Shown one piece after another: positions 2,044-49,727 of a stretch of DNA of 64,000 bases (positions within the stretch are counted from its first letter, which is position 1; every line of letters begins with the position of its first letter). Under the pieces are notes generated by a model, which made no database searches, had not been told where the DNA came from, and worked only from the letters and a program-made list of their open reading frames with translations. A program made the translations under genes and the position numbers. Origin of the DNA: Planctomycetota bacterium (GTDB taxonomy: Bacteria > Planctomycetota > UBA1135 > GCA-002748355); NCBI GenBank assembly GCA_020638795.1, contig JACKHW010000005.1, positions 218,023 through 282,022 of the forward strand, given 5' to 3'.

Positions 2044-2333
2044 GCGAGTTTCGGGGGGGTCGCGGTTCGAGGAGGACCGCTCGAAGGACGGGAGAGTCGC
2101 GCACTACGCAGAAAGGTCACACACTGGTCGGAGGACGACCGACAGTTCTGGATCTTCTCCCTCGCGGTCTCACGGCACACGAACCGAAAGCGCCGCTGAC
2201 ATGGCGCCGATCGGCGCAAGTCACCACAGACGCCATGCCGCGGACGATTCTCGATTTTCGGCGCAGGTTCGGCTTCGAGAGCCTCCTTCCGGGGCACCAG
2301 GACCGCGCTCTCGATGCCACCGCGTCGAGGTCT

Positions 2334-3542: not shown

Positions 3543-3554
3543 GTCCGCAGGAAC

Positions 3555-3961
3555 CTATCCGCAGCACCGCGAAAGCGAAATGCCCACGGCGGTCAGGCAC
3601 TCACGCGTTCGAAGAAACTCGTCACGCGAGCACGCGTCGGCTCCGAGCGCGAGCGCTTCGAGCACGTCGAGGGCCGTGATGATCTTGCGGCTCGCGAGCA
3701 GCCGGACCTTCGATCGCAGAACATGATGCTCGCGGGCCGCATGCACGCGCGGCAATGAGTGCGCGAGCGGCATCCCTACCGAGTCGCTGTCTTCGAGCGG
3801 TGCCGCGCCGGTTCCGTCTTCTTCACCATCGACCGTGATGAAGTCGGGGACGATGCCGGTGTCCTGCATCGCGCTGCAAGTGCTTCGAACTCACGCATCG
3901 AGCCGACACAGAGCAGGCAGCCCACGATCAGGATGAAGAAGGCAGGCTTGACGAAGCGCAT
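3555..3961 (-). pseudogene. Remnant of an FMN-binding glutamate-synthase-family (YerD-like) gene
   Basis: Frame A (3961 down to ~3899) encodes only a TM-like N-terminus, MRFVKPAFFILIVGCLLCVGS. Frame B (3869..3555) encodes a 104-aa internal piece, PDFITVDGEEDGTGAAPLE...GMPL...RKIITALDVLEALALGADAC. That piece matches the GltS FMN-domain core (xDxItIDGxxGGTGAxP ... GKIxTxxDxxxAlALGAD), which sits around residue 330 of ~500-aa relatives. The frames differ and about 300 codons are missing. Confidence 0.5.
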
Positions 3962-4098
3962 CGTTCCGTTCCTCGGGTTGCAGCTTGCAAACGGACGACT
4001 GCGAACAACGCGAACTCCCCGCTGCTTTTGTCTGTGCGATTCACAGTGCGGTCAGCGCTGAGGTCTCCGTCCGAGAAATCAATCAAGGAGAGACCGAG

Positions 4099-5199
4099 AT
4101 GAACACCTTCCGAAAGACACTTCCACTGATCGTCGCGATGACCGCCACTGGCTTCTTGCACGCGCAAGACGGAACGGAGAACGTACAGATCGAGAGCTAC
4201 GGTGTGAGCTGCGGTGCGCAGCTGACTGGCTCGATCGCAACGAGGCGGCTCGCGATCACGGTGACGGATGCACTGCCGTGCCAACCGGTCGCGATCGTGC
4301 TCGGTTCGCATGCGCAGAGCTTGGCGCTGCCGGGATCGCCGTGCCGTCTGCTCACGAATGCGCAGCTTTCGGTGCCGTTGCTCGCGAACTCGCGCGGTGC
4401 GGCATCGCTCGAGATTCCGCTGCCCGGAGCGTTCTCGAGCCTCTTCGCCCAGGCAATCGCGCATGACGCGGGCAAGCAGCGCTTCGTCGGTTCGCAAGGC
4501 TTGGCCGTGCACGATGCCACAAAGGACGAGCGCGTGATCGCGGTCGTGCGGGCGGGCGGTTCGTACATCCGCTTCGTCGAATCCGAACCCGGCGAGCTCC
4601 TCATCGTCGCGCTCGATGGCACGAAGGCGCATCGCGATGCATTCGCGCGCTACGAAAGCGGCGCGATCACGGCCGCCGAACTCTATACGTCACTCTCCGG
4701 ATTGACCGCGCCGAGCGCGCTTCGAGCGCTCTCCGTGAAGGTCGCGAATGCGCGCAAGTCGGAGACCATCGAAACGCCTCTGCAGGGTTCGATTCTGGCA
4801 CCGTTCGTCGGAGTGCTGCCCGGTGCAGTTCCGGGGCCTCGCGGGCAGAGTGGCAACGCCGGTCCCGCGGCATGCAACAGCGCCTCGTGGTTCACCGGCA
4901 TGTATTGCAATCACCCCGGGGACTTCGAGTACTGCTGGACCAACTTGACGGGCAATCCGTGGGTCCAGAAGTACTGCCACGCGATGTATGGACGCGTCGC
5001 CTCGGTGAGCGGCAACTTCGGGTTTGCCTACAGGCGCTGGAACGGCAGCAGTTGGTACATCGTTTGGTCGACCAACGTGACGACCTGCCAGACCTTCTAC
5101 TGCAACGCGAGCTACTCGTCGCCCCGGCACTGGCGCCGGATGGACGTCGCAGGCGGCGACGGCGATCTCAAGCACTTCCGCGTCGCCGGCTACAACTGA
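4099..5199 (+). CDS. Secreted hypothetical protein with the two-Cys shared module at the N-terminus and a Cys/Trp/Tyr-rich C-terminal domain
   Basis: ATG at 4099 is preceded by AAGGAG (4085-4090). Signal peptide is MNTFRKTLPLIVAMTATGFLHA|QDG. The track ORF starts upstream at 3985, but that extension lacks a signal peptide. Confidence 0.7.
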   Translation: MNTFRKTLPLIVAMTATGFLHAQDGTENVQIESYGVSCGAQLTGSIATRRLAITVTDALPCQPVAIVLGSHAQSLALPGSPCRLLTNAQLSVPLLANSRGAASLEIPLPGAFSSLFAQAIAHDAGKQRFVGSQGLAVHDATKDERVIAVVRAGGSYIRFVESEPGELLIVALDGTKAHRDAFARYESGAITAAELYTSLSGLTAPSALRALSVKVANARKSETIETPLQGSILAPFVGVLPGAVPGPRGQSGNAGPAACNSASWFTGMYCNHPGDFEYCWTNLTGNPWVQKYCHAMYGRVASVSGNFGFAYRRWNGSSWYIVWSTNVTTCQTFYCNASYSSPRHWRRMDVAGGDGDLKHFRVAGYN

Positions 5200-5376
5200 T
5201 CGACCACATGCTCCGGCTCGTCGCTCAGCGCATCTCGAGCGCGAACACCAGCGAGAGCTGGGCGAGACTTGCCGATGCACGCTCCTGGGTATCGGATGAC
5301 GAGGGAAAGCGCATTCTCCACTCAATCGTCGAACGCGTCGCGCAAAGAGTAATCGTCGATTGGTGAGGCACAGTAC

Positions 5377-5673
5377 TCACCTTCTTGCGCTGCGGGCTCT
5401 TGCGACCTGTCGCTTCCGCCCAGCAGCCAAAAAGGCGGCTCCGATGGCGATCGACGCGAGGTAGGGCGCGGCACTCAACCAGGTCAAATGGTCGGGACCT
5501 CCTCGGAAGTCGATCAGATCATAGAAGTGCAAACTCGAGATCCCCAAGAACCCGCAGATCATGAGGACGATCGCGGAAACGCGCAGCCACTCCACCCTCT
5601 TCCTGGTCACGAGAAGCGACACGGCGAAGAGGCCGTCCGCGATCATGAACAGCTCGAACCAGGTAATGATCAC
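5377..5673 (-). CDS. Small integral membrane protein (about 3 TM helices)
   Basis: GTG at 5673 overlaps the TGA stop of the upstream GT2 gene (GTGA, 5670-5673). The product, VIITWFELFMIADGLFAVSLLV...SAIVLMICGFLGISSL...YLASIAIGAAFLAAG, is hydrophobic. The remainder of the 312-aa track ORF is Arg-rich shadow sequence. Confidence 0.5.
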   Translation of the reverse strand: MIITWFELFMIADGLFAVSLLVTRKRVEWLRVSAIVLMICGFLGISSLHFYDLIDFRGGPDHLTWLSAAPYLASIAIGAAFLAAGRKRQVARARSARR

Positions 5674-6584
5674 GCGTTCGACCGTCCTCGCCCGACCACC
5701 TGCCCCGCCGCCTTCTTGAGCTCCCCCGCGAGCGCCGGCGCCATGCGCAGGAAGCGCTTGCGCAGCCGCGCGCGTACGCGTCGCTTGTCGCGTGCACTCA
5801 GGTCCTGCGCGGCGAGCACACGGCGCATTTCGCGCCACAGGCCCCACATCGGCATCACGACGCGTTTGCCATGCTTGGGGTCGAACCACGTCGCGAGGCG
5901 TTGGGGCGTCGCGGCTTCGATCATCGACGTGCCGGGGTGCAACCTGCGGACGAAGAGCGGCTCGTCGATCTCGCGGAACGTGCCGGCGAACGCGAGTTCG
6001 AATAGCAATGTCTGGTCGGATGCGACGTGGGTCGCGATCTTCGGTGTCTTGGCGAGCGCGGACGAGCGGAAGACGCCGAAGATCGACATCCAGACGTCGT
6101 CGTTCTGGTCGGCGAAGTCGAGCAGGTGCAGGGCGCGTGCCGCGGGGTCGGCGTCGAGCAGATCGAGCGTGCCGCCCGAGTCGCGCAGGAGCTGATCGTC
6201 TTCGTCGATATAGCGCGTCTTGGGGAACGCGACGACGCACGACGGATCGCGTTCGAGCGCTTCGACGCAGCGGCGGAAGAAGCCGGGCGCACACAGGTCG
6301 TCGTGAGCCGCCCACTTGAAGTACTTCCCACGTGCGTGCTCGAAGACGAGGTTGTAGTTGCCAGCGCCACCGACGTTGACCTCGTTGCGCGCGATCGACA
6401 CGCGAGCGTCGTTCGCGGCGATGCGTTCACAAATAGCGACCGTGTCGTCGGTCGATGCGTTGTCGCGGATGACGACTTCGAAGTCGGCGAAGTCCTGCGC
6501 GAGGATCGAGCTCAACGCTTCTTCGATCCAGCGCGCACCGTTGCGCACCGGCATGCCGATACTGAGGACCGGGTCTCGCCCCAT
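5670..6584 (-). CDS. Family 2 glycosyltransferase
   Basis: 304 aa. N-terminal GT-A motifs are LSIGMPVRNGARWIEEALSSILAQDFADFEVVIRDNASTDDT and a DxD-like AAHDD. Confidence 0.85.
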   Translation of the reverse strand: MGRDPVLSIGMPVRNGARWIEEALSSILAQDFADFEVVIRDNASTDDTVAICERIAANDARVSIARNEVNVGGAGNYNLVFEHARGKYFKWAAHDDLCAPGFFRRCVEALERDPSCVVAFPKTRYIDEDDQLLRDSGGTLDLLDADPAARALHLLDFADQNDDVWMSIFGVFRSSALAKTPKIATHVASDQTLLFELAFAGTFREIDEPLFVRRLHPGTSMIEAATPQRLATWFDPKHGKRVVMPMWGLWREMRRVLAAQDLSARDKRRVRARLRKRFLRMAPALAGELKKAAGQVVGRGRSNA

Positions 6585-6603
6585 ACGGAGAAGACTACCG
6601 GCG

Positions 6604-9600
6604 CTACCGCACCTTGCCCCCGCGCTTCTCCAAAAGCGGCGTGAAGTAGCGGTAGTAGACCTCGAGGCTCAGCACGCACATCGCGGTCGTGTAGCTGCGA
6701 TCCTTGCGCGTGTCCTTCGCGTAGCGCGCGTAGGCCCCGACCGGCGCGAAACTCCCGTCCGAGCTCTGGCCGCGTGGCAGCTCGACGCGCAGCTTCTCGT
6801 TCCAGAGCCGCCATGCGTCGCCGCCGCGGAAGAAGCACGCGAGCGTGCCGTAGTACCAGAAGTACGGGTTCCCGGCCCCCCGCTGCACGAAGTCGTCGTC
6901 GCTTGCCCGCGCGTACTTCTCGATGCGGCGATCGGTCGTGAAGCGCAGCCCCGTCTCGATGCGCGGATCTTCCGGATCCTGGCCGAGCAACAAGAGGCAG
7001 AACACCGATGCAGGAGTCGACGCTGGCAGCGTGCGCCACGTCATCTGCAAACGCTGCGGTTCCTTCGTGTAGAGGAAGTAGCCGTAGCGATCATCGAACA
7101 TTTCGAGCAAGAAGCCCTTCGCCATCGCGAGCGCTCGCTCCGGGACGTCGAGCCCCGAACGACGCGCCGACTCGAGGGCCATGATCTGCCAACTCGAAAC
7201 CGAGGCACGGCTGTACGGATCCTCGGGCTTCAGCGTCGGACTGTAGTAGCCCCAACCACCGCGACTGTGCCGCGGTCCGCCGTCTCTCTGCTGCTCGAGG
7301 ATCCAGTCAACCGCGTGGCTCAGTGGCTTCTGCAGCCATGGCAGCTTGGTCAGCGCGTAGCACTCGGCAAGCGCGTACGTCGTGATGCCGTGGCTGTAGG
7401 ACGACGAACGCCCGAAGTGCCCCGTGTCCTCGTCCTGACTCGCGAGCAGAAAGCGGATCGCGCGCGCGACGTTGGTCGCGTACTGCCCCTTGCCGACCGG
7501 ATCGCCGTCCTGCCCGGGCGCGGGGATCGTCGGTGGCAGGTTGCCCGCACCGAGGAAGGCGAGCAGACAGAGCGCCGACTTGCCGACGCGCACTTCGCCG
7601 TACTTCTCGTCGTAGTCGTCCTCTTCGCCCCAACCACCATCGTCTCGTTGGATCTTGGCGAGGTAGCGAAGGCCCTTCTGCACCGCGAGTTCGGTCTCCT
7701 CGGTGCCGCCGAAGCGCGCGAGCGCCTCGACCTTCTTCTTGCCGAAGCGGTTCGCATAGAGCGAGACCTCGGCGGGCTTCTTCTCCGTGACCGGTACGAC
7801 TCGTACGCGTCGCTGTGCACGATCGACCTGCGTCGACGGTGGAAGCACGCTGCCGGCATCGAGTCCGTCACGCCGGCGTTCGTCGCCGAGCATCGCGACC
7901 GGGCTCGAGGGCAAGGTCTCGACCTTTTGGATGCGTGGCAGAGCAACGCGTTCGACGCTGACCGACGGCGGCCCCTCGGTCGCACGCCGAATCGGGACAG
8001 CGCGGGACGCGATAGGCGCGTTCACGGCAACCGCTGTCGCCGGCACCGAGACGCGGCGTGACGACATCGGCCTGGCGCGTGCGACGCGTTCGGATCTTCC
8101 TCCGACGCGGACGACGCGTGGCTTGGCGAGATCGAACTCGGGCGGTGCGACGCTCGCGCCTTCGACGAAACTCGGAGCAGGTTGCGCGTCGAGCGCTCGC
8201 TGCGGCTGCGCCACGGCGGCGCGTGCTTCGTCGGCCTTCGTCACGAGTTCGCGTGCGGTCACGCGCGACTCGTCGAGTGCGGTCCCGGGCTTCGGTGCAT
8301 CGGCGATCGCGCCCGTGTCCACTGGCGTGTCGACCGCGATTGCGGGCGCGAGGCCGGGTCGCGGCCCGTTGGCGACGAGCGGCCGGCCGTCGCGCGTCCG
8401 TGCTGGCGGTGCACGGCGCGTGCGTGGCTTGGCGAAATCGGTGGACGGCGGCGCAATCTCCGCAGCGATGTCGTCGACCGGGCGTTCCGCTTCGGCCTTG
8501 TTCGCTGCTGCCGTCACGACCTCGGACGACGCGCGTTGGATCGTTGCGGCCTTGGCGGTCAGCGCTTCGCCCGTTTCGTCCGACTTCGCCCTACCCTTCG
8601 CGCTCGCGACACGATTCGCATCGGGCGTGTCCCGCAACTGCGGCTCGCGTGCCGACAGCTCGCGCTGCGTGACGGCGGGAGCGACACGTGCCATCCGTTC
8701 TGGTCCGGGGCGCTTCGAGGTCACACCGGACAAGACCGCATCGGGTGCGGGCAGATTCGCTTGTTGCTCGAGGTCGCGCGCCTTGCTGTCCGCGACACGT
8801 TCGGCATCGGGAACCGTCTCGAGCCGCGCGGTGCTCGTCGAAGCTGCCGCCGGTCGTGCCATCGCGGGATCCGCGTTCATGCCGAGCTTCGCTTCGACGG
8901 CCTCGAAGGCGGAGTCGGTTTCGACGGTCGGAATCGCGATCGCTACGGGCTCCTGCGCGCGCACGTCCCGGCTCGCTGCCGGCACACTGCGAGCAGCGGT
9001 CTCGCCCGACTTCGGCGTCGCGTCCGCAAGAGTCGACGCGGACGGGATCGCGACTTCGATCACCGCTCGTTCGGCAGCGCGCTGAGGGTCGGCGGCCTCG
9101 GTCTTCGCTTGTTCTGCAGTCGTCGCGATCGCGTCCGGAGCCACCGTCGTGTCCTGCCCGGACTTGGGCGCGAACTTCGGCAACTCCTCGGTCACGGCAC
9201 GCGCCTCGGTCGTCGGCGCATCGAGCTTCGCGACTTCGGTCGTGAGTTCGCGCGAACGGTCCGCCAAGAACTCCGCACGTTCCTGTCCGTCGCGCGCCGC
9301 GGTCGCCACCGATGTCTGCGGGACTACCGGCGCGAGGTCTCGTTCGAAACCTTCGAACTCGCGTCGCTGCCCGAGATCCGACTCCGCCCGCGCAGGCGCT
9401 TCGTCGGGTGCGCGCTCGCCCGTGAGTTCTGCCGAACTCATGAGGCGTACTTCGACGCGATCCCCGACTTCAGGCACCGGTGGCAAGAACGTGCGCACGA
9501 TCTCGACGCGCATCAACCACAGGAGCAGGAGCAAGTGGATCAGGAGCGATGCGAGCAAGCACTGCGTGATGACGTCGAGCGCTGTCCACCGTCCACCGAG

Positions 9601-10677
9601 CCAGAACATCACGAACAGCAAGAACGCCATCGCCGCGACGATCGCGAGCACCCACTCGAGGTTGCGCTGCCCGAGCCACCAGGGACGAACCAGTCGCGAA
9701 TCGGCGCGGTACTGAATGCCCGACGATTCGTCGACGAGGAAGAGTCCTCTTCCATCGTCCGCACTCCGGGGACCACGCAAGCGACCCAAATCCGCGAAAC
9801 CCGGCACGGGCAGCGGCGCGACAAAGCCCTGGACCCCCGACTCGCTCGGGTGCAACCACGTGTGGAAGAGTCGACGCCGTCCGCTCTCGAAGCGTCGCAC
9901 GAAGTAGAGCACCTCGCCCCGCGCGTCGAAGCTGCAATCGCGATCGAAGAACGTCGGATACGGACCGTCGTCGCCGATGTCGTCGAAGACCTCGTGCACC
10001 TCGACATCACGAGACGCTAGCGATCCGAGATACAGCACACCGTGCGCTCCGCGCGCGATCTCCGGATCGCGGCGCGAGAACGCGATCTGTACACCATCCG
10101 GATGCGGCGCCGGATCGGTCTCGTCGAGCGGCGTGTTGATTCCCGCGGGCAATGGCCGGACGTCGTCGAAGCCGCGACCGTTCCATCGCGCGGACCACAG
10201 GTCGAAGCCGCCGGCTCCACCAGGACGGTCGGACGCGAAGTACAGACGACCGTCGATCCCGAACGCCGGCGCGAGGTCGTGCGAAGGACCGTCGATCGAC
10301 GCGATCATCTCCGGCTCGAGCCTTGGCCGCTCGGGATCGAAGATGACGAGTTCGGTCTCGGCGCCAATCGGCGTGCCGCACTTGCGGGCGTACAAGATGC
10401 GCCCGTCGGGCAACGCACACGTGCGCCCGCGAATGTCACCTGTCAATTCGGTGGCCGGCATCGGCGTATCGAAGACGAGCATCGACGCGTCGCGCAGCGT
10501 CGTCGCATTGCGTGGGGACACGCCACTCGAGTACCAGATCGGTCGCCCCGAACGCAGCATGACGAGCCCGAGCAGCGCGACGAAGAAGACTAGGAGCGCA
10601 GCGAGCGCGAAGATGCGGCGCTTCTTGCTCCTGGGCGGTCTCTTGCCCTTGGTCTCGTTCGCGTTCTTCTTGGCCAT
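6604..10677 (-). CDS. Giant envelope protein: N-terminal TM, PD40/TolB-like beta-propeller, two TM helices, long Ala/Pro/Arg-rich linker and a C-terminal prenyltransferase/squalene-oxidase-repeat (alpha/alpha toroid) domain
   Basis: 1357 aa. TM1 is IFALAALLVFFVALLGLVML. PD40-type repeats include DGRLYFASDRPGGAGGFDLWSARW. TM2/3 are WVLAIVAAMAFLLFVMFWLG and CLLASLLIHLLLLLWLM. The low-complexity linker spans about residues 400-890. C-terminal repeats are LRYLAKIQRDDGGWG and EQQRDGG...GGWGYY. Confidence 0.85.
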   Translation of the reverse strand: MAKKNANETKGKRPPRSKKRRIFALAALLVFFVALLGLVMLRSGRPIWYSSGVSPRNATTLRDASMLVFDTPMPATELTGDIRGRTCALPDGRILYARKCGTPIGAETELVIFDPERPRLEPEMIASIDGPSHDLAPAFGIDGRLYFASDRPGGAGGFDLWSARWNGRGFDDVRPLPAGINTPLDETDPAPHPDGVQIAFSRRDPEIARGAHGVLYLGSLASRDVEVHEVFDDIGDDGPYPTFFDRDCSFDARGEVLYFVRRFESGRRRLFHTWLHPSESGVQGFVAPLPVPGFADLGRLRGPRSADDGRGLFLVDESSGIQYRADSRLVRPWWLGQRNLEWVLAIVAAMAFLLFVMFWLGGRWTALDVITQCLLASLLIHLLLLLWLMRVEIVRTFLPPVPEVGDRVEVRLMSSAELTGERAPDEAPARAESDLGQRREFEGFERDLAPVVPQTSVATAARDGQERAEFLADRSRELTTEVAKLDAPTTEARAVTEELPKFAPKSGQDTTVAPDAIATTAEQAKTEAADPQRAAERAVIEVAIPSASTLADATPKSGETAARSVPAASRDVRAQEPVAIAIPTVETDSAFEAVEAKLGMNADPAMARPAAASTSTARLETVPDAERVADSKARDLEQQANLPAPDAVLSGVTSKRPGPERMARVAPAVTQRELSAREPQLRDTPDANRVASAKGRAKSDETGEALTAKAATIQRASSEVVTAAANKAEAERPVDDIAAEIAPPSTDFAKPRTRRAPPARTRDGRPLVANGPRPGLAPAIAVDTPVDTGAIADAPKPGTALDESRVTARELVTKADEARAAVAQPQRALDAQPAPSFVEGASVAPPEFDLAKPRVVRVGGRSERVARARPMSSRRVSVPATAVAVNAPIASRAVPIRRATEGPPSVSVERVALPRIQKVETLPSSPVAMLGDERRRDGLDAGSVLPPSTQVDRAQRRVRVVPVTEKKPAEVSLYANRFGKKKVEALARFGGTEETELAVQKGLRYLAKIQRDDGGWGEEDDYDEKYGEVRVGKSALCLLAFLGAGNLPPTIPAPGQDGDPVGKGQYATNVARAIRFLLASQDEDTGHFGRSSSYSHGITTYALAECYALTKLPWLQKPLSHAVDWILEQQRDGGPRHSRGGWGYYSPTLKPEDPYSRASVSSWQIMALESARRSGLDVPERALAMAKGFLLEMFDDRYGYFLYTKEPQRLQMTWRTLPASTPASVFCLLLLGQDPEDPRIETGLRFTTDRRIEKYARASDDDFVQRGAGNPYFWYYGTLACFFRGGDAWRLWNEKLRVELPRGQSSDGSFAPVGAYARYAKDTRKDRSYTTAMCVLSLEVYYRYFTPLLEKRGGKVR

Positions 10678-10704
10678 CGTGGACTCCCCCGAACCCCTCG
10701 TTCG

Positions 10705-11121
10705 TCAGCGTCCGTTCGCTCGTGGTGTCGCGCCGATCGCGATCTGACGTAACGGTGCGGCACGACACGCGTCGAGCACGCGCGCGACGACGCCGAACTG
10801 CGTGTTGGTATCGCCGCGGATCAACACTTCTTGTCCCTCGTTGCGCTTGGCCGCACTGCGCAGCATTTGCTCGAGGACCGGCATGCGGATCTCCTTGCCG
10901 TCGACGGTCAGCGCGCCGTTCTCGAGCACGTTGATGATGATCGGGCGTGCGTCCTTCTTGGTCGTGCCGGTCGTCGCGTCGGGCAGACGGAGATCCATCT
11001 CGACCTCTTCCTTGCGGAACGTCGTCGCGACGAGGAAGAAGATGAGCAACAAGAAGACGATGTCGATCAGCGGCGTGAGGTTGGGTGTCGCGTCGACTTC
11101 TTCACCCAGATCAAGCCGCAT
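10705..11121 (-). CDS. exbD: ExbD/TolR family biopolymer transport protein
   Basis: 138 aa with a single TM and the family motif NLTPLIDIVFLLLIFFLV. It overlaps the upstream exbB-like gene by 11 nt. Confidence 0.9.
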   Translation of the reverse strand: MRLDLGEEVDATPNLTPLIDIVFLLLIFFLVATTFRKEEVEMDLRLPDATTGTTKKDARPIIINVLENGALTVDGKEIRMPVLEQMLRSAAKRNEGQEVLIRGDTNTQFGVVARVLDACRAAPLRQIAIGATPRANGR

Positions 11122-11785
11122 CGCGAATCTCCGGCTTGCCCGCGAGACGCTCGACCCACGGTGCGAGCCGCTCGTCGCACGCGAGCATCAGGCGACGCGA
11201 CTTGCCCGAGAAGTGCGCTGCGATGAGCATCGTCGGGATCGCGACGCAGAGCCCCGCGATCGTCGTGACGAGAGCGACTTCGATCCCGGACGCCAACATC
11301 TCCGGCTCCCCCATCTTCGTCTTGACGACGCGATGGAACGCTTCCTGGATCCCGAGCACCGTGCCGAGCAGACCGAGCAGGGGCGCGACGCCCGCGATGA
11401 GGTGGAGCGTGCGGTTGTTGCCGCGGAGCTTCTCGAGTTCCTTGTGCGCTTGGTCCTCCATCGCGACCTCGACCGCGCGCACCGGATGACCCTGGCGACG
11501 CATACCTGCGAGAAGGATGCGGGAGGCGGGCGCGTTCATCTCTTCGAGGATCGTCTTGGCGCCTTCGTGGTCGCCGGCACCGAGCTTCGCTTCGGCCTCT
11601 TCGAGACGTGCCGGAATCACGCGCGAGCGCGTCAGTGTGCGCAAGCGTTCGAGCGTGAACGCGACCGCGACGAGCGAACAGAGCGCGATCGGGATCATGA
11701 CCGGCCCGCCAGAACTCAGGAAGTCCCAGACGGTCTGCACCGTGGTCTCGGTCTGCAACCGTGCGATCGAAAGAAGCGACGTCAT
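11111..11785 (-). CDS. exbB: MotA/TolQ/ExbB proton-channel protein
   Basis: 224 aa with three TM segments and a conserved C-terminal region, LGLLGTVLGIQEAF...GIEVALVTTIAGLCVAIP. Confidence 0.9.
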   Translation of the reverse strand: MTSLLSIARLQTETTVQTVWDFLSSGGPVMIPIALCSLVAVAFTLERLRTLTRSRVIPARLEEAEAKLGAGDHEGAKTILEEMNAPASRILLAGMRRQGHPVRAVEVAMEDQAHKELEKLRGNNRTLHLIAGVAPLLGLLGTVLGIQEAFHRVVKTKMGEPEMLASGIEVALVTTIAGLCVAIPTMLIAAHFSGKSRRLMLACDERLAPWVERLAGKPEIRDAA

Positions 11786-11837
11786 CTTTGGTATCCGGTG
11801 CCTTGGTTCTTCGTGTCGATTGCGCGCGGAGCGACGA

Positions 11838-14800
11838 TCATCCGCTCAGCTTCTCGAGCAGGTTGCGCGCGGCTTTCGCGGAGTCGGACTTGGCGAAACG
11901 CTCGACGAGTTCGTTCAAGAGCTTCCTGGCCTTCTCCTTCTGGTCCTGCGCGAGGTAGCCCTCGGCAGAAGCGAGCAAGCCCTTCTGTACCCACTCGGGT
12001 TGACCGTAGAGGATCGAGAGCTTGAGCCAGGCGTCGATCGCGCCGTCGAGATCGCCCGCGTCGCGGCGCGCTTCGCCGATGCGATACTGCGCTTCGGCTC
12101 CGAGGGGGCCGTCGGAGAGTTTCGTCGCGGCTTCGAACGAGGCCACCGCGGCGTCCCAGTCCTTGCGAAGCGCACGCGCGCGACCGAGCCACAGCGCCGC
12201 CCGCGCACGATCACCTGCGGGCGCATCCTTGCTGCCGAGGATCCACTCCTCGAGGGAGCGAATCGCGGCGGCAGCGCGCCCGTCTTCGAGATCGACGTGT
12301 CCGAGGTGAAGCTTCGCCATTGGCGCGCGCGCGCCGGCGGCGTTGCGCTCGAGCAACTTGACGAACGCGTCGCGCGCCCGATTGCGATCGTCGCGCCGAT
12401 ACGCGCACTCACCCGCGAAGAAGAGCGCTTCGTCATAGAGCGACTGCGCCTCGTCTGGCCCGAGCGCGAGGATGCGTTCGAAGAGCCCGGCGGCACCTTC
12501 GAGATCACCGCGTTCGAAACGCGAGAACCCGAGGCGGTACAGCGCTTGTGCTCGATAGCGTCCTTCGGTGGCCTGGAGGAGTTCGGCCGCGCGTGCGTCG
12601 GCCTGCTTCTGCTCTGCGTCACTCAGCGCCGCTGCGGCGTTCTTCGGGCCGCCAGTGGCTCCGTTGGCTCCGTTCCCCGCCGCGTCGCCGTCGAGTTTCG
12701 CGAGTTCGGCAACACCGAGGTGGAGCTTGGCCTCACCGACGAGTTCGACGTCCTTGCTGCTCTCAGCGACCTGCGCGAACGCGGCGAGGGCGCCCTTCTC
12801 GTCGTTCTGCTTGCGGCGTGCCCATGCGAGTTCGTACCAGAGTCGGTCGGGGCGCTCGAGGCCTTGGACCGCTTTACCGTCCTTCGCGAGATCTTCGAGG
12901 GTCGCGAGTGCCTCCGCATTGCGATCGCGGCGAGCGAGGGCGACGCCGAGCGCGTAACGCATCTCGGCCGCGCGTGGATGCTTCGGGAAGCGATTCAGGA
13001 ACGTGCGCGCCGCGATCTCGGCCTTGTCGAACTGCTTTGCGCGATGGTGCAACGACGACACGAGTTCGAGCATCGAGGGCGCACCATCGCCGATCTGCGG
13101 ATGTGCGATGGCAGCATCGACGTAGCGTGCGCAGTCCTCGTCGTTGCCGAGTTCGAACGCGCACCACGCGAGCCCTTGCAACGCTTTGGCACCGACTTCG
13201 GACTTCTCGCCTGCGATCGCCTGGTACGCTTTCGCCGCGCCTTCGAAGTCACCGCGACGGAACGAAAGCTCGCCCATCTGCAGGCGGTCGGCTTCTTGCT
13301 GACCAGTGTCCTTTTCGGCGGCAGCCGCGCGCGCGACGCGTGCGGTCGCGGCCTCGAGCTGTTCTCTTCCGGCGAGCACCTGCGCGGCGACGCGCTCGGT
13401 GCGCGCGAGGTAGGTGCCGCTCGGGTGCCTGGCGAGGTAGCGATCGGCGGCCATCAGCGCGCGGTCCCCGTCGCCTGCACGGAAGCTCGCGAGTGCGGCG
13501 AGGGAGAGCGCTTCTTCGGCGAACGGACTCTCGTCGCCCGCGACGGCCTCGAAACGCTTGGCTGCCTCGGCGACGTTGCCCGCGAGGTACGCGCACCACG
13601 CGTGCTTGAACGCGGCGCGCTTCGCGAGTTCGTGTCCACCGGGGATCTTCGCGTAGTCGGCCTCGGCCTCGACGTACTTCTTCATCGCAAAGAGCCCTTC
13701 CGCCCGCGCGAAGCGAGCCTGCACCGCGAGGCGATGCTCGGGCAACGTATCGACGACGCGCCCTGCCATGCGGACCGACGCCGCGTGCTCGCCAAGCTCG
13801 TGCAACGCGACCGATGCGCCGTACAGCGCATCACCCGCGAGCGCATCGTCCTTGGATCCGAGCGCGGCATTGGCGGCGACGCCGTAGGCATCCGCCGCCT
13901 CGCGCCATTCGCTCAGCTCACTCGTCGCTTCACCGAGATCGAACGCGATGCGCGCCTTCGTCTGGATGTCGAGGTCGCCTTGCAAGGCTTTGCGGAACGA
14001 AACGCGTGCGTCCTTCGCTTTGCCGGCATCGAGCTGCGCGAGACCCAGGATCTCGAGGCCGCGAAGCCGCGACGCCCCGTCGAGGTCCTCACGCGCGAGC
14101 AATCGGTCGAGCGTCGTGATCGCGGGAGCCGTCTTGCCGAGCTGCCAGTAGATCGCTCCCTGTTCGAGCGCGGCGCCGATCGCGAGCGGGGATTCGGGGT
14201 GCTTCTCGGTGACAATGCCGAACGCGGCGGCTGCATTTTCGAGATCGTCGAGGCGGAGCTTGGACCACGCGAGACCACTGCGAGCCTCGGCGACGTGCGG
14301 GCCACCGGCCTGGATCGCGGCCTCGTAGTCGTCGATCGCGCGCTGCCACGCGCCGGCGCGGAAGGCCGACTCTCCCGCCAAGAACTGGCACTCCGCGCAC
14401 GCTTCGTGCCCCTGGAAGCGGCGCGCGGCCTCTTCGAAGCACGACGCTGCGCCCGCAGGATCGTCGAGCGAGGTCAGCACGAACCCGGCTTGATAGAGGG
14501 CGGGCATCCCGAACGTGCCTGCGGGGTCCTTCTCGGCCTTTGCCGCTTCGAGGAAGATCGCGACGGCTTGCTTCGGCTTACCGGCGTCGCGCAGGCATTC
14601 GCCGAGCGCGTATTGACCGGCGAGTCGGAGGTAATGGCCCGCCTCGACTTCGTCGACGAGCGCCTGGAGCTGTTGCGCGGCCTCGGAGAACTTCTTCTGC
14701 TGCTGCCGCAGCTTGCCGACGCGGTAGCGGCATTCGGGCCGGAACCGCAACCCCGGAGTCTCGAGCGCTGCGAGATACGCGTCGATCGCGCGATCGACGT

Positions 14801-15050
14801 TGCCGAGTTTTTCCTCGCAGCCCCCGAGCCGATAGCGCGCCTCGGGCGCGAGCGGGTGTCGAGGAGCGTCACGAAGGAAGAGTCCGAACTGCCTCGCCGC
14901 GTCGTCCCAGAGTTCTCGCTGCAGGAGGCCGATGGCCACGTCGAAGCGCTCGCGCGCCTTGTCCTGCGACCGGAGCGACGGTTGCAACGCGAAGAACGGC
15001 AGTGAGATAGCGGCGACGACGGTCCACGTCGCCGAAACGGGAGACTGCAT
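11838..15050 (-). CDS. Large secreted/periplasmic tetratricopeptide (TPR) repeat protein
   Basis: ATG at 15050 is preceded by GGAGGAAAGGA on the minus strand. The N-terminus MQSPVSATWTVVAAISLPFFAL looks like a signal peptide. Dozens of TPR-like A/L/Y/G repeats run along the length. The track start at 15230 is a TTG with no RBS. Confidence 0.85.
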   Translation of the reverse strand: MQSPVSATWTVVAAISLPFFALQPSLRSQDKARERFDVAIGLLQRELWDDAARQFGLFLRDAPRHPLAPEARYRLGGCEEKLGNVDRAIDAYLAALETPGLRFRPECRYRVGKLRQQQKKFSEAAQQLQALVDEVEAGHYLRLAGQYALGECLRDAGKPKQAVAIFLEAAKAEKDPAGTFGMPALYQAGFVLTSLDDPAGAASCFEEAARRFQGHEACAECQFLAGESAFRAGAWQRAIDDYEAAIQAGGPHVAEARSGLAWSKLRLDDLENAAAAFGIVTEKHPESPLAIGAALEQGAIYWQLGKTAPAITTLDRLLAREDLDGASRLRGLEILGLAQLDAGKAKDARVSFRKALQGDLDIQTKARIAFDLGEATSELSEWREAADAYGVAANAALGSKDDALAGDALYGASVALHELGEHAASVRMAGRVVDTLPEHRLAVQARFARAEGLFAMKKYVEAEADYAKIPGGHELAKRAAFKHAWCAYLAGNVAEAAKRFEAVAGDESPFAEEALSLAALASFRAGDGDRALMAADRYLARHPSGTYLARTERVAAQVLAGREQLEAATARVARAAAAEKDTGQQEADRLQMGELSFRRGDFEGAAKAYQAIAGEKSEVGAKALQGLAWCAFELGNDEDCARYVDAAIAHPQIGDGAPSMLELVSSLHHRAKQFDKAEIAARTFLNRFPKHPRAAEMRYALGVALARRDRNAEALATLEDLAKDGKAVQGLERPDRLWYELAWARRKQNDEKGALAAFAQVAESSKDVELVGEAKLHLGVAELAKLDGDAAGNGANGATGGPKNAAAALSDAEQKQADARAAELLQATEGRYRAQALYRLGFSRFERGDLEGAAGLFERILALGPDEAQSLYDEALFFAGECAYRRDDRNRARDAFVKLLERNAAGARAPMAKLHLGHVDLEDGRAAAAIRSLEEWILGSKDAPAGDRARAALWLGRARALRKDWDAAVASFEAATKLSDGPLGAEAQYRIGEARRDAGDLDGAIDAWLKLSILYGQPEWVQKGLLASAEGYLAQDQKEKARKLLNELVERFAKSDSAKAARNLLEKLSG

Positions 15051-15313
15051 TCCTTTCCTCCGATCAGGCCGAGCAGTGGGCGCTCGGTATTTCCGCCTTG
15101 CCGGGCAGAGGCAGCCGACTGTGGCTGGAGCCTTTCGCGAGTATTGTACGAAACGAACCGGGCCCGAGTTCGATCCAGATCCGAACTCCCGTGACGTCCG
15201 CGCCGCCGAAGTTCCGGCGTGCGCGTGCAATCCCGGAAGATTCCGATCTCATCGCGAATTGCCCATGCCGGCGCTTGCTCTCGGCCCCGATCGGCAATGG
15301 ACTGGTGTCCGAT

Positions 15314-16870
15314 ATGTTGCGTACGCTTTCCCGGATCACGGTCGCTGCCTCCGTCCTCGCTGCTTGTGCCTGGGCGTCGTGGACTCTGACGTCGATGACA
15401 CTCGGGCGCGCGGCGCCCCGAACGCCCGCACCGGCGGGAAACTCCGCCGGCGCTGCGGGAACGCTGTCCAAAGTGGTCCCGGTGCCGCAGGACGTCGCCC
15501 AGGACGAGGGCTCGCAGCAAGATCGTTTGCGGAGCACGCACAAGCCCGCTGCGGTCGACAGTATTCGCATCACGCCGGTCGTCCGTGCCGTGCAGAAGGC
15601 GGCGCCTTCGGTCCTCAACATCCAGGTCGGCGACATCGTGCGCACGACACAGGGGCCCGCGTTCCGGAAGCTCGGAGAAGGCTCGGGCGTGATCGTGAGC
15701 GAAGAGGGTCTCGTCCTCACCAATTGGCACGTCGTGCGGTTCAAGGAGCAACTCGGCAACGCGTTCGAATGTCGCGTCAAGCTGCGGGACGATCAGCAGT
15801 TTCCGGCGCGCGTGATCAACACGTCCCGCGAGAACGACCTCGCCTTGCTGCTCATTTCGCCCGAGGACGGCGTCTCGCATCGCTTCCCGCCGATCGAAAT
15901 GGGCGACTCGGACTCGCTGATGATCGGCGAGACCGTGATCGCGATCGGGAATCCGCGCGGGCAGGTCAACACCGTGACGACCGGCGTGCTGTCAGCCGTC
16001 GGAAGGTCGCTATCGGTACAACCGCGCGGCGAACGACGTCCGATCCAGTTCGACATGCTCCTGCAGCACGATGCGGCGATCAACCCGGGCAACTCCGGCG
16101 GTGGACTCGTCGACTTGACCGGCAAGCTCATCGGCATCAACACTCTGATGCAGGCCGAGTCGCAGAACATCAACTTCGCGATCCCGGTCAATCACGTCCG
16201 CACGATCTTCGAGCAGAACCTGCTCAACGTGTCCCGGCTCGCGATCTGGTTCGGCATCGAAACCGCGGCGCGAGACGGGCGCTTCGCGATCACGCGCGTC
16301 ATGCCGTCGAGCCCCGCGGCTCGCGCTGGCCTTCAGGTCGGGGACGCGATCGACCAAGTCGGAGAGCGAAAGACGGTCGACGACAAGTCGTTCGCGACTG
16401 CGCTCATCACCTATCGGGTCGGACAGCGCGTGCCGTTCTTGGTCGAGCGAGCTGGCGCCCAGGATTGGAAGTACGTCGACGCGTGGAGCCGGAGCGCGGG
16501 CACGATCCTCGACGTCGCTGGGTGCGTCGTCGAGACGGTCGACAAGGTCCGTGAGCGCAACGTGTATCGCAACGTTCTGTCGGATCTGATCGAGATCTAT
16601 CGATTCGGCGGCGGCAACTTCGACGTGCTACGCGTGACCGAACTCGAAGAGGACGGTCCCGCTGCCAAGTTCGGTCTTCGCGAAGGCGACTACATCGTCG
16701 GCTACATCGTCGAGTCGGACGACTACGAGACATGGTTGCCGCTGACCGGGGACATCGCACAACTCGCGTCGCTTCTCCAAGCTACGGGTGACGGTCGTTC
16801 GCCCCGCCTGTCGGTTTGGCGCCAGAAGGACGGGCTGCTCTCGGGCCGGATGATCGTGCGGAAGCGCTGA
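15314..16870 (+). CDS. HtrA/DegP-family trypsin-like serine protease with two PDZ-like domains
   Basis: ATG at 15314 gives a membrane-anchor/signal N-terminus, MLRTLSRITVAASVLAACAWASW. Triad motifs are LTNWHVV (His), NDLALLLI (Asp) and INPGNSGGGL (Ser). PDZ segment is VMPSSPAARAGLQVGDAI. Confidence 0.85.
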   Translation: MLRTLSRITVAASVLAACAWASWTLTSMTLGRAAPRTPAPAGNSAGAAGTLSKVVPVPQDVAQDEGSQQDRLRSTHKPAAVDSIRITPVVRAVQKAAPSVLNIQVGDIVRTTQGPAFRKLGEGSGVIVSEEGLVLTNWHVVRFKEQLGNAFECRVKLRDDQQFPARVINTSRENDLALLLISPEDGVSHRFPPIEMGDSDSLMIGETVIAIGNPRGQVNTVTTGVLSAVGRSLSVQPRGERRPIQFDMLLQHDAAINPGNSGGGLVDLTGKLIGINTLMQAESQNINFAIPVNHVRTIFEQNLLNVSRLAIWFGIETAARDGRFAITRVMPSSPAARAGLQVGDAIDQVGERKTVDDKSFATALITYRVGQRVPFLVERAGAQDWKYVDAWSRSAGTILDVAGCVVETVDKVRERNVYRNVLSDLIEIYRFGGGNFDVLRVTELEEDGPAAKFGLREGDYIVGYIVESDDYETWLPLTGDIAQLASLLQATGDGRSPRLSVWRQKDGLLSGRMIVRKR

Positions 16871-18683
16871 TCGCGGGCTGCAACCACGACAAGCGTGCGC
16901 AGAGCGCGAACGCCGTCGCGGGATCCCAACTCGTCAAGCCACTCTCGAACGCCTCACTCTCGAACGCGCGCACGAGTCGGCGCGAAACGGCGCCGGACCA
17001 GCGCTTCGCGAAGCGCTTGAGTGCAGGGACCTGCGCGAACCCCTCGACGCACCACGCCTCGAAGCATGCGTCGTCGCCGGCGCCGCGCGCTTCGCGACCC
17101 ACGCCGTCCTTGGTCGACACGATGGGGAGGAAGAGCGTCGGCGCGGGGCCGAGCGTGTTCCATGGCAGCGTTCGCAACGATTCGACCAATCGATGCAGCT
17201 GCCTTCGTGCTCGCTCACTGCCGCTGCGCGCCGCGAGTCGCAACGTCGGCAACAACATCCCGGCGACGAACCACAGTTCGACGCGACGCGTGGTCTGTCC
17301 GACGCGGTTGTCCGGCCAATCGGGCCAGCCCGCATCGACGCATCCGTCATCGATCCACGTCAGGATCCGTTCGCGCGCGGCAAGGCTCTGCCCACGAGCG
17401 AGGACAATCGTGGCCACCGTGCAATTGCGGAGTGGCCACACGAGTTCGCGGAGCGCACGCCGTCGATCGTCGCGCACGAGTTCTCGTTCGAGCGTATCGA
17501 GTACGGCAATCGTCGCATCGAGTTCGAGACGACGCGACGTGCAGAGACTCGTGAGCAATGCCCCCTCGAGAAACACGTGCCCGAAGTCGATCTCGCCGAA
17601 CCCGTGTCGCGTTCCGTGCTTGACCGGAAGTCGCACGGCGCCGCGCGCGAGATTTCGTTCGATCGTGTGGTGCAACGTTTCGAGTGCGAGGGACAAGGCT
17701 TCGCGACAAGTATCTGCGTCTCCTTGCGTCGTCGTTTGCAGACGACTCGCGCGGAGCAGCCAAGCAAGACACGAGTCGAACTCGCCGTGCGTGAAGTAGC
17801 GGACCGCACCGTCTTCCGTGCGCACGATCCGCCGCACGTCGTCACCGCGCGACAGCGTGTCTCGCGGACGGTCGCGCGCGACGCGCTCGCACAACTTCAC
17901 GAAGGAAGGAGCGAGTTCCGGGTCGCGCTCGAGCCGAACGCGTGCAGGCTCCAGGGAGAGATCGAGCAACGCAGCCGAGGGTTGCGCCGCGAGCGTCGGA
18001 TCGACACGACACGGTCCGGCACCGATCACCAAGAAGAGCCCATCTCCCGGGCGCAACCGCTCACTCGGGACTCGGATGCGCACCCGCGTGCGAGGCGGCT
18101 CGCCGCCAATCGAGATCGACGCTCCGCGCAACTCGATTCCGTGCCAGTCACGCATTTCGGTCATGAACGAGAACTCGAGCGACGTCTCCGTTTGGAATCC
18201 GGACCGCGTCTCGATGTGCATCCGGAGCTCGATGGCCCCATCAGGCCACTCGAACCACTCCACCGAAGCCCGGGCTCCCGGGACGAACGACTCCTGCACG
18301 AAGCGCGGAATCACGTCGCCGTCCGCGTGCGCCGCCGCCTGAGCGCCATCGAATGCGAGTCTGCTACGCACTTCACGCGATTGAACGCTCGCCAACGGCC
18401 TCAGTCGGCACGCACCGACGACGGAGGCTTCGGCGCGGAGCTCGGCGATCACCGGAGTCATCGGAATGACTTCGCCTCGGCCGACGACGACTCCGCCCTT
18501 CGTCAACACCACTGGACCGTATCCGAACGCGGCGGGGACCGCGGTTCTGAGCTTCCCGGACTCGAGCACGACGACCGTACCGGCAGCGTCCTCGCTCGCG
18601 GCCATCCGAGGGGAACTACGACCGGTCGCGATCGCGAACACGAAGACGACCACATGAGGGAGCATGCACGACATGTCACTCAT
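16782..18683 (-). CDS. Hypothetical protein with a hydrophobic N-terminus
   Basis: 633-aa ORF with three in-frame ATGs at 18683, 18674 and 18665. I recognised no family motif. High third-position GC supports this strand. Its 3' end overlaps the convergent protease gene by 89 nt. Confidence 0.55.
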   Translation of the reverse strand: MSDMSCMLPHVVVFVFAIATGRSSPRMAASEDAAGTVVVLESGKLRTAVPAAFGYGPVVLTKGGVVVGRGEVIPMTPVIAELRAEASVVGACRLRPLASVQSREVRSRLAFDGAQAAAHADGDVIPRFVQESFVPGARASVEWFEWPDGAIELRMHIETRSGFQTETSLEFSFMTEMRDWHGIELRGASISIGGEPPRTRVRIRVPSERLRPGDGLFLVIGAGPCRVDPTLAAQPSAALLDLSLEPARVRLERDPELAPSFVKLCERVARDRPRDTLSRGDDVRRIVRTEDGAVRYFTHGEFDSCLAWLLRASRLQTTTQGDADTCREALSLALETLHHTIERNLARGAVRLPVKHGTRHGFGEIDFGHVFLEGALLTSLCTSRRLELDATIAVLDTLERELVRDDRRRALRELVWPLRNCTVATIVLARGQSLAARERILTWIDDGCVDAGWPDWPDNRVGQTTRRVELWFVAGMLLPTLRLAARSGSERARRQLHRLVESLRTLPWNTLGPAPTLFLPIVSTKDGVGREARGAGDDACFEAWCVEGFAQVPALKRFAKRWSGAVSRRLVRAFESEAFESGLTSWDPATAFALCARLSWLQPAISASARSSGPRAARPSGAKPTGGANDRHP

Positions 18684-18808
18684 TCATGTCCCGACGTCAG
18701 CGGAGGTTTCGCGGCAATGCCGATAAACTGCGCACGATGGACTCTGGAACGCGTCGACGGCTCGGCGTCGACGTCTCCGGGGCCGCTCATGGAGACAGGG
18801 AGAAGAAG

Positions 18809-19372
18809 ATGGATTCGATTCGCGTTTTGATTCCTCTTGCCGAAGGGTTCGAAGAAATCGAGGTCGTGACCGTTGCCGACATCTTGATCCGTGCCGGTGC
18901 CGAAGTGACGCTCGCGGCTCTGACCGATTCCATGGATGTTCGTGGGAGCCGCGGGATTCACGTCGTCGCTGCCACGACGCTCACGGGCACCGAAGATGCC
19001 GAACTCCTCTACTTGCCTGGCGGTGCCGAAGGCGCGCGCCGCCTCGGCGAGGATTCACGAGTGCTCGAGCTGGTTCGGCGCTTCGAATCGAGCGACCGTT
19101 GGATCGCCGCGATCTGTGCGGCGCCGACGGTGCTCGTGCGCGCCGGCGTCTGTGCGGAACGCCGGATGACGTCGCACCCGACGGTCGCGGACGAGGTGCG
19201 TGGACATGCGGCCGAGTATCTCGAGGACGGTGTCGTCTTCGACGGCAAGCTCGTCACCGGTAGGGGTCCTGGCGTCGCCCTCGACTTCGCACTCGATCTC
19301 GTCGGGCTGCTCTTCGGTGCCGAGCATGCGGCAGAAGTGCGCGGCCCGCTGATGTGCGAAGTCGTGCACTGA
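18809..19372 (+). CDS. DJ-1/PfpI (YajL/ThiJ-like) family protein
   Basis: ATG at 18809 follows GGAGACAGGGAGAAG. The N-terminus is VLIPLAEGFEEIEVVTVADIL, and the nucleophile elbow AAICAAP carries the conserved Cys. Confidence 0.85.
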   Translation: MDSIRVLIPLAEGFEEIEVVTVADILIRAGAEVTLAALTDSMDVRGSRGIHVVAATTLTGTEDAELLYLPGGAEGARRLGEDSRVLELVRRFESSDRWIAAICAAPTVLVRAGVCAERRMTSHPTVADEVRGHAAEYLEDGVVFDGKLVTGRGPGVALDFALDLVGLLFGAEHAAEVRGPLMCEVVH

Positions 19373-49622: not shown

Positions 49623-49727
49623 GGTCCTATCGCCTGACGTGGATGGAAGAACGCGCCTTCTCGGCTCTTCGGGATTCTCTTTAGGTGAACTTGATGGACT
49701 CTTCCATAGTGACGAGAAAGCGGTCCA

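Follow-up and report, generated by a model that had tools for sequence, protein, structure and literature searches.

A conserved TPR-ExbB-ExbD module of Planctomycetota with a putative force transducer joining a TolB-like propeller to a terpene-cyclase-like toroid

Six consecutive open reading frames (ORFs) on the minus strand, at positions 5377-15050, were analyzed in a 64-kb window (the whole stretch of DNA, with a G+C content of 62-69%) from a Planctomycetota metagenome-assembled genome (MAG). The first four in the direction of transcription form a conserved unit, which codes for a large TPR protein, an ExbB/TolQ-family protein, an ExbD/TolR-family protein and a giant protein of 1357 aa. 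This unit, TPR-exbB-exbD-giant, fairly probably represents a proton-motive-force-driven, envelope-spanning force-transduction machine with a non-canonical transducer. By membership it is neither a Tol-Pal nor a TonB system, and it parallels the vWA-headed transducers published in 2025, with a different head. Tol-Pal and TonB are the two textbook routes by which inner-membrane energy reaches the outer envelope of diderm bacteria, and the module is a concrete and testable candidate for the way in which Planctomycetota energize outer-envelope processes. An earlier sequence-only reading of the window had taken the six genes for one operon encoding a rearranged Tol-Pal/TonB-type energized envelope system. 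This interpretation was partly supported, being right in its essentials and over-extended to six genes.

Homologues of the giant protein formed 111 clusters of 1000-1800 aa, and almost all named ones were from Planctomycetota MAGs. All are uncharacterized and annotated as "hypothetical" or "PD40 domain-containing", and nearly all contain PD40 and SQHop_cyclase-like domains. Gene calls were available for seven metagenome loci, in which the identity of the giant protein ranged from 56% down to about 28% and the TPR protein measured 1011-1060 aa. In 7/7 of these loci the giant gene was immediately preceded by the genes for TPR, ExbB and ExbD, in that order, and the genes flanking the module varied from one to the next. 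For a second survey, one genome per GTDB species was scanned with the toroid alignment, which favors the recovery of toroid-bearing members. At least 572 loci were obtained, and the best 80 were annotated by phmmer with the window's own proteins as queries. Among these 80, the N-terminal PD40/transmembrane region and the toroid were combined in 48 genes at 47 loci. The genes for ExbD, ExbB and a TPR protein of about 1000 aa were found directly upstream of the giant gene, in the same order, in all 41 of the species-representative loci with enough upstream DNA. Seven further species-representative loci are cut off at a contig edge but preserve the module as far as the contig reaches, and none contradicts the order. 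The arrangement that the sequence-only reading had proposed to look for around homologues of the giant protein was present in 48/48 related loci with enough upstream sequence (7 metagenome and 41 species-representative loci). Given this recurrence in every informative locus, the clustering of TPR, ExbB, ExbD and giant genes is far beyond chance.

In the window, the six genes and their junctions were located where the sequence-only reading had placed them, the TPR protein having 1070 aa and not 1071. The TPR gene (11838-15050) is separated by a 52-nt gap from exbB (11111-11785), which overlaps exbD (10705-11121) by 11 nt. Gaps of 27 nt and 19 nt precede the giant gene (6604-10677) and a GT2 glycosyltransferase gene (5670-6584, 304 aa, PF00535 at 1e-27), respectively, and a 4-nt GTGA overlap joins the GT2 stop to a small hydrophobic ORF (5377-5673, 98 aa). 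The NCBI annotation has identical starts for five of the six genes (MCB9881558-560, -562, -563) and lists the 98-aa ORF as H6832_11065; the giant protein also has an NCBI entry, with the name "PD40 domain-containing protein". Although all six genes are adjacent, the conserved unit comprises only the first four, because the GT2 gene was kept only in near relatives and the 98-aa ORF had no homologue. A GT2 copy with 81% identity occupies the same position in the closest relative (locus L089), and a second contig carries a member of the GT2 cluster with more than 90% identity; none of the other loci searched had a GT2 gene after the giant gene. The 98-aa ORF appeared to be coding, with a G+C content at third codon positions of 0.79 in frame, and it had no family match in Pfam or NCBIfam. 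No homologue of it was detected in L089, in 88 related loci or in its own 90% cluster, which has one member. The GT2 gene was rejected as a component of the system; like the 98-aa ORF, it is probably a passenger that is co-transcribed in this lineage only.

Two complete TPR-ExbB-ExbD-PD40/toroid modules in tandem were observed in locus L057 (Planctomycetota MAG Bpl_8), at about 1664-11050 and 9415-19313, which suggests duplication and possibly specialization of the machine. At two distant loci, L005 (2214-5453) and L008 (2243-5349), a BlaI/BlaR1-like pair, consisting of a Penicillinase_R protein and a Peptidase_M56 protein of about 900 aa, is encoded directly upstream of the TPR gene; this pair is not present in the window.

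The giant protein produced Pfam matches to PD40 (4e-9), SQHop_cyclase_C (4e-12) and Prenyltrans, and a PDB sequence search with it returned nothing under E = 0.047. In its predicted layout, with all features on the minus strand, a cytoplasmic, Lys/Arg-rich N-terminus precedes a first transmembrane helix (TM1; residues 18-43, 10549-10626), which is a helix in the AlphaFold model and has a hydrophobic segment at residues 22-40. A PD40 beta-propeller of about 24 strands, consistent with six blades, occupies residues 48-330 (9688-10536). It is followed by TM2 (residues 334-361, 9595-9678), a short cytoplasmic loop with a conserved Arg363-Trp364, and TM3 (residues 365-389, 9511-9585), which contains Cys373, Ser377, His381 and Leu388. 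Next come a candidate motor-box strand, DRVEVRLM (residues 406-413, 9439-9462), a linker that spans about 560 residues and in which Ala, Arg, Pro, Val and Glu predominate (residues about 414-974, 7756-9438) and an (alpha/alpha)6 toroid (residues about 975-1345, 6643-7755), the last of these according to an AlphaFold model. From the positive-inside rule, hydropathy and the AlphaFold model, the propeller and everything after TM3, including linker and toroid, are predicted to be periplasmic.

The AlphaFold model of residues 1-410 had a mean predicted local distance difference test (pLDDT) score of 86.9 and contained TM1, the beta-propeller and a TM2-TM3 hairpin. Its top PDB matches were TolB structures (1c5k with E 3e-9, also 4pwz and 2ivz), ahead of the propellers of S9 peptidases. 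The template modelling scores (TM-scores) against TolB were low, owing to the presence of the helices in the query and to its lack of a TolB N-domain. Both the Pfam match and the model agree with the PD40 assignment made in the sequence-only reading. The linker contained 109 Ala, 58 Arg, 55 Pro, 50 Val and 47 Glu among the 550 residues from 401 to 950. It is poorly conserved, and both its sequence and its length differ among the homologues.

TM3 has the sequence C373-LLA-S377-LLI-H381-LLLLLW-L388, which corresponds to Ser-x3-His-x6-Leu. The His was present in 110/111 homologues and the Ser at -4 in 95/103, and position +7 was occupied by Phe or Leu. The Cys at -8 from the His (Cys373) was near-invariant as well (97/103). 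To our knowledge, neither this Cys nor the Arg-Trp pair of the TM2-TM3 loop has a counterpart in TonB or TolA. The SHLS motif is defined as Ser-3X-His-6X-Leu-3X-Ser, and in cryo-electron microscopy structures of TonB-ExbBD and TolAQR it contacts TM1 of ExbB/TolQ (PMC12905483). Judged by its residue pattern, TM3 carries the first three-quarters of this signature of TonB and TolA. Hydropathy and the AlphaFold model give TM3 the orientation of the TonB helix, with its start on the cytoplasmic side and its end on the periplasmic side. A TolA/TonB-like element in the giant protein, composed of a transmembrane helix, a long Ala/Pro-rich spacer and a globular C-terminal domain, had been proposed before and was supported in all three parts, to which the Ser-x3-His-x6-Leu pattern was added.

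A conserved pattern, [F/I/V]-x-V-x-[L/V/I], was detected 27-31 residues past His381 and reads V-E-V-R-L at residues 408-412 of the giant protein. In E. coli TonB, an ISVTMV strand is located 25-30 residues past His20. Val410 was conserved in 50 and Leu412 in 41 of 66 aligned sequences, and the pattern was also seen in raw segments from 23 homologues. According to Williams-Jones et al. (2025, Mol Biol Evol, PMC12204202), every TonB and 93% of TolAs have a motor-box strand, and the conserved pattern after TM3 is a candidate for its equivalent. The AlphaFold model stops at residue 410 with low confidence, and no motor-box strand is modelled.

The C-terminal domain was modelled by AlphaFold as an all-helical (alpha/alpha)6 toroid with a pLDDT of 92.3 and a predicted template modelling score of 0.92. 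Together with the SQHop_cyclase_C match this bears out the view, already expressed in the sequence-only reading, that the giant protein ends in a toroid and not in a TolA or TonB domain. Foldseek returned single-domain class II terpene cyclases, GH76 mannanases and AprG, with TM-scores of 0.55-0.68 and identities of 11-16%, and the modelled resemblance is to the fold and not to a specific enzyme. The NCBIfam models TIGR01507 and TIGR01787 matched the giant protein with 36-40 bits, compared with cut-offs of 431 and 323. The toroid shares its fold and QW-like motifs (Q-x-x-D-G-[GS]-W) with class II terpene cyclases and squalene-hopene cyclase (SHC), which account for the Pfam match and for the best Foldseek matches, including MstE (6sbe) and an Archangium SHC-like protein (8paj). 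Unlike these enzymes, it has no DxDD motif, is predicted to be periplasmic on a TonB-like tether and is invariably encoded next to a proton motor. In an alignment of 62 toroid domains, neither a DxDD nor a DDxxD motif nor any conserved Asp was found; the conserved residues were three Glu, two His, several Gln and many Trp and Tyr. Because the DxDD motif and a conserved Asp are absent, the toroid is probably a non-catalytic binding head and not a cyclase.

The motor proteins were assigned by profile matches. ExbB (224 aa) matched MotA_ExbB (PF01618) at 1e-29 with 103 bits, and a conserved Ser in TM1 was common to its orthologues. Its best NCBIfam matches were TolQ with 65 bits (TIGR02796, cut-off 221) and ExbB with 51 bits. 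ExbD (138 aa) matched PF02472 at 5e-29 with 101 bits, and its best NCBIfam matches were TolR with 64 bits (TIGR02801, cut-off 127) and ExbD with 50 bits; all four of these scores are under the equivalog cut-offs. The proton-binding transmembrane Asp of ExbD is kept as Asp20 in LTPLIDIVF. On the Pfam matches, both proteins are placed in the 5:2 motor family. These results, with the strict synteny, the TM3 motif and the motor-box-like strand, bear out the earlier description of an ExbB/ExbD-type energized envelope system.

The TPR protein matched TPR_16 of Pfam at 1e-39, and also YfiO. With the ybgF-like model TIGR02795 it reached 209 bits (cut-off 90), in six separate stretches over the 1070 aa, so that CpoB/YbgF-like TPR units extend along its whole length; with the full-length CpoB model PRK10803 it reached 46 bits (cut-off 383). 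Its N-terminus is signal-peptide-like. Orthologues of 1010-1070 aa were encoded upstream of ExbB in all informative loci, and of those examined 7/7 had a signal-peptide-like N-terminus and 0/7 a lipobox.

These observations would fit the following mechanism. ExbB and ExbD would assemble as a 5:2 proton motor, and TM3 would dock on the rim of the ExbB pentamer via Ser377 and His381, as TonB and TolA do. ExbD would grip the strand after TM3, and proton flow would then pull on the Ala/Pro-rich linker of about 560 residues. The toroid would serve as the distal head and bind a partner at the cell wall or the outer membrane. Since the domain is all-helical and putatively non-catalytic, its ligand would most likely be a glycan or a lipid and not a TonB box. 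The membrane-proximal, TolB-like propeller and the secreted, CpoB-like TPR protein of 1070 aa may act as interaction platforms.

Planctomycetota have an unusual envelope with a large, convoluted periplasm, and most of their lineages are not known to have FtsZ-based division. The physiological role of the module is most likely a Tol-like maintenance or tethering of the envelope in these bacteria, which we infer as the weakest step of the proposal. A Tol-like role is favored because the accessory parts are of the Tol type (TolB-like and CpoB-like), because no receptor is associated with the module and because Tol-Pal is reported to be "largely reduced" in Planctomycetes (PMC8871954).

Shorter proteins, about 33% identical in the toroid, were likewise recovered in the toroid scan, from Verrucomicrobiota, Planctomycetaceae and Sumerlaeia. 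Nearly all of them consist of an N-terminal transmembrane helix with [S/A]xxxH, a Pro/Gly-rich stretch and the toroid. In Verrucomicrobiota the gene order is ExbB-ExbD-ExbD-TPR (about 1000 aa)-toroid protein (about 530 aa, without a propeller), as at L063 4883-11086 (a Verrucomicrobiae MAG) and also at L058, L059 and L082. A Sumerlaeia MAG has the order TPR-ExbB-ExbD-toroid. Planctomycetaceae have ExbD followed by the toroid protein, which contains a two-helix transmembrane hairpin; the G-x-R-W loop of this hairpin is similar to the one between TM2 and TM3 of the giant protein. An example from a cultured strain is Planctomicrobium sp. SH664 (NZ_CP195792.1; L086 8379-11116), in which an ExbD gene is followed at once by the gene for a 757-aa toroid protein with such a hairpin and an F-S-x-x-V-H motif, with no ExbB gene next to the pair. 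Genetic work might start from this strain. Three further loci (L053 2145-9341, L073 2380-9598 and L088 8954-16033) each encode three tandem paralogues of about 750-1000 aa with the arrangement TM(SxxxH)-linker-toroid, and no ExbB or ExbD gene was present within the flanks examined. Some members of the toroid family contain an additional CarboxypepD_reg domain, and in some verrucomicrobial metagenome proteins (P0143, P0154 and P0162) TPR and toroid are fused under the Joint Genome Institute name "TolA-binding protein". The verrucomicrobial toroid proteins amount to hundreds of clusters and are annotated as hypothetical, "prenyltransferase/squalene oxidase repeat-containing" or "terpene cyclase/mutase family". 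The motor, the large TPR protein, the SxxxH helix and the toroid head thus recur in differing orders and fusions across distant lineages. This recurrence is the strongest argument that the four elements work together.

Of the systems described so far, the vWA-headed, motor-driven transducers of Planctomycetes-Verrucomicrobia-Chlamydiae (PVC) bacteria, Bacteroidetes and Proteobacteria are closest in design (PMC12204202). In PVC bacteria their genes are located downstream of TPR-tolQ-tolR-tolR; their function is unknown, no mutants have been reported, and the authors speculate about a role in gliding (PMC12204202). Like these proteins, the giant protein has an SHLS-type His helix, a candidate motor-box strand, a disordered or Pro-rich spacer and a head unrelated to those of TonB and TolA, and like the PVC members it is encoded downstream of TPR and tolQ/tolR-like genes. 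It differs from them in having an (alpha/alpha)6 toroid as a head, with no vWA match in Pfam, and in its spacer, which at about 560 residues versus about 100 is about five times longer. Moreover, the module contains one ExbD/TolR gene where the vWA systems have a heterologous pair, two being present in the verrucomicrobial toroid loci, and the Planctomycetota subfamily adds an N-terminal transmembrane helix, the TolB-like propeller and a second transmembrane helix. The sequence-only reading knew of no characterized system of this composition. Since vWA-headed transducers have been published, the design principle is no longer unprecedented; the toroid head itself does not occur in that paper, which contains none of the terms toroid, prenyl, cyclase and PD40 (PMC12204202). 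In the literature searched, which left most subscription-journal papers outside, no description of toroid or prenyltransferase proteins with ExbD/TolQ was found. A possible link to the Akkermansia mucin utilization locus was dropped, as the literature consulted gave no indication that ExbBD or toroid proteins take part in it.

The module could be a true rearranged Tol-Pal system, as the sequence-only reading had suggested, in which TolQ, TolR, a TolB-TolA fusion and an oversized CpoB mobilize a Pal-like lipoprotein at division sites. Tol-like parts are indeed present: the pair of MotA/ExbB-family and ExbD-family proteins scores higher as TolQ/TolR than as ExbB/ExbD (65 versus 51 and 64 versus 50 bits), the SHLS-type helix is followed by a periplasm-spanning spacer, the propeller has TolB as its top structural match, and the TPR protein, with repeats of the YbgF/CpoB type, is over the cut-off of TIGR02795. 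This explanation is nevertheless improbable. The TolQ and TolR scores are far under their cut-offs of 221 and 127 bits, and the TPR protein is four times as long as CpoB (about 260 aa). The giant protein has neither a TolA or TonB C-terminal domain (no match to PF06519, PF03544 or PF13103) nor the TolB N-terminal domain, and its all-helical toroid cannot bind TolB by strand augmentation. Unlike the soluble TolB, its propeller is fused N-terminally to the transducer and tethered between two transmembrane helices, beginning after TM1 and ending at TM2. The earlier claim that TolB-like and TolA-like elements are joined in one polypeptide stands, but a simple tolA-tolB read-through fusion was rejected, because the propeller precedes the TolA-like part in the polypeptide and is bracketed by transmembrane helices of its own. 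The sequence-only reading had also noted the absence of a Pal/OmpA-like gene, and this was confirmed: OmpA/Pal, TonB_C, TolA and TonB-dependent receptor domains were all absent from the roughly 46 ORFs scanned across the window, and no Pal/OmpA gene was found in the seven annotated related loci.

Alternatively, the machine might be a TonB-like energizer of import that opens a TonB-dependent receptor or a planctomycete-specific pore for macromolecule uptake. With an ExbB/ExbD pair that keeps the transmembrane Asp, Ser-x3-His-x6-Leu, a candidate strand about 27 residues past the His and a long Pro/Ala-rich spacer, the overall design is that of TonB, and TonB-type systems are widespread among diderm bacteria (PMC12204202). 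The giant protein differs from TonB in having three transmembrane helices and an extra propeller and in lacking TonB_C, and its all-helical head is unable to form the beta-strand pairing with a TonB box. Furthermore, no TonB-dependent receptor or Plug domain was encoded in the window or among the neighbors of the module in related loci, and the constant partners, namely the TPR protein and the TolB-like propeller, are Tol-type and not Ton-type; an import function is thus considered unlikely. That the module serves surface motility or secretion, as the motor core of an apparatus like Agl-Glt of Myxococcus or a PorE-like complex associated with the type IX secretion system (T9SS), was judged improbable. 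Agl-Glt combines TolQR-like motors with large TPR proteins. PorE (T9SS) and CHU_0125-type lipoproteins, described as "CpoB-TolB-Pal fusions", also combine TPR, a PD40 propeller and CarboxypepD_reg, the last of which occurs in some toroid-family members as well. PorE has been discussed as a Tol-Pal-like tether, and the proposed gliding role of vWA transducers points in the same direction (PMC12204202). However, the PD40 region matched the PorE and CHU_0125 models of NCBIfam with only 34-37 bits (E about 1e-9), compared with cut-offs of 600-620. These lipoproteins are located in the outer membrane, end in OmpA_C and are not coupled to a motor, whereas the giant protein is predicted to be anchored in the inner membrane, has the SHLS-type helix and ends in the toroid. 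Glt, Gld, Por or secretin genes were not found beside the module in the annotated loci, the flanks of which differ. That the giant protein is a mere membrane-anchored periplasmic enzyme (a terpene cyclase, prenyltransferase or glycoside hydrolase), its proximity to exbBD being meaningless, is very unlikely. The Pfam matches to SQHop_cyclase_C and Prenyltrans, the Foldseek matches to class II terpene cyclases and GH76 mannanases and the public annotation of relatives as "terpene cyclase/mutase family protein" would be explained in this way. The low identity and TM-scores, the lack of DxDD, DDxxD and any conserved Asp in 62 toroids, the invariant synteny with ExbB/ExbD and the retention of the SxxxH helix even in distant toroid proteins would not. 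An anti-phage defense system of the Zorya type, based on a MotA/MotB-type motor, was effectively refuted. The ZorA2 match of ExbB (E 2e-6, 25 bits) is attributable to the shared MotA/ExbB/TolQ domain, ZorB, ZorC, ZorD and ZorE were not matched, PADLOC was blank for the other five proteins, and the module is found in varied, housekeeping-like neighborhoods across the phylum and not in defense islands.

Several points weigh against a force-transduction machine. The final Ser of the SHLS motif is replaced by Glu392 in TM3, and the motif helix is the third of three transmembrane helices and is paired with TM2, while TonB and TolA are single-pass proteins. ExbB and ExbD are under every NCBIfam equivalog cut-off. 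The binding of TM3 to ExbB is a predicted step, the target of the toroid is putative, and the analysis turned up no partner in the outer membrane or the cell wall. For some toroid proteins there is only an ExbD gene nearby or no motor gene in view (L086, L087, L053, L073 and L088). Co-transcription of the genes is plausible from their spacing alone. No sigma-70-like promoter sites were found in a scan of the locus, which is uninformative for a Planctomycete, and terminator-like sites numbered 10, compared with 7.6 expected, which is no excess over shuffled controls, none of them being inside a junction.

If the force-transduction machine is nonetheless taken as the basis, a wider proposal can tentatively be made. 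The TM(SxxxH)-linker-toroid proteins may be an unrecognized, PVC-wide class of transducers that couple ExbB/ExbD motors to a glycan or lipid of the wall or outer membrane via a non-catalytic toroid, and the propeller-fused, TPR-paired version of Planctomycetota may replace the Tol-Pal system that these bacteria largely lack. The catalogue of transducer heads would then grow from the TonB/TolA type and vWA to a third, all-helical type. The finding further points to hundreds of incorrect "terpene cyclase-like" annotations in Planctomycetota and Verrucomicrobiota. Clear targets for point mutations are His381 and Ser377 in TM3 and Asp20 in ExbD, and the toroid is a soluble domain that could be expressed for ligand screening.

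Outside the module, an HtrA-like trypsin/PDZ protease gene (15098-16870, plus strand) is divergent from the TPR gene. The closest relative, L089, keeps this neighbor together with a DJ-1/PfpI gene and a gene for a protein of about 635 aa of no assigned identity; the more distant loci do not. A second protein of the HtrA type, with an unusually long architecture, is encoded at 51407-54388 (plus strand); its 993 aa comprise three Trypsin_2 stretches followed by PDZ. On the minus strand, a 104-aa ORF at 3555-3869 covers only positions 229-319 of the 369-position Glu_synthase profile and probably represents either what is left of a gene or a fragment produced by mis-assembly. A SpoVR-like gene adjoins a DUF444 gene at 46987-49727 (minus strand), and the 238-aa ORF upstream of this pair (49728-50444) had no Pfam match. 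In other bacteria such a pair usually accompanies a PrkA-type kinase. Finally, the region 40368-43630 (minus strand) contains a gene for an extracytoplasmic function sigma factor (42923-43630) and, after it, a long ORF that combines a zf-HC2 anti-sigma motif with a CarboxypepD_reg domain.

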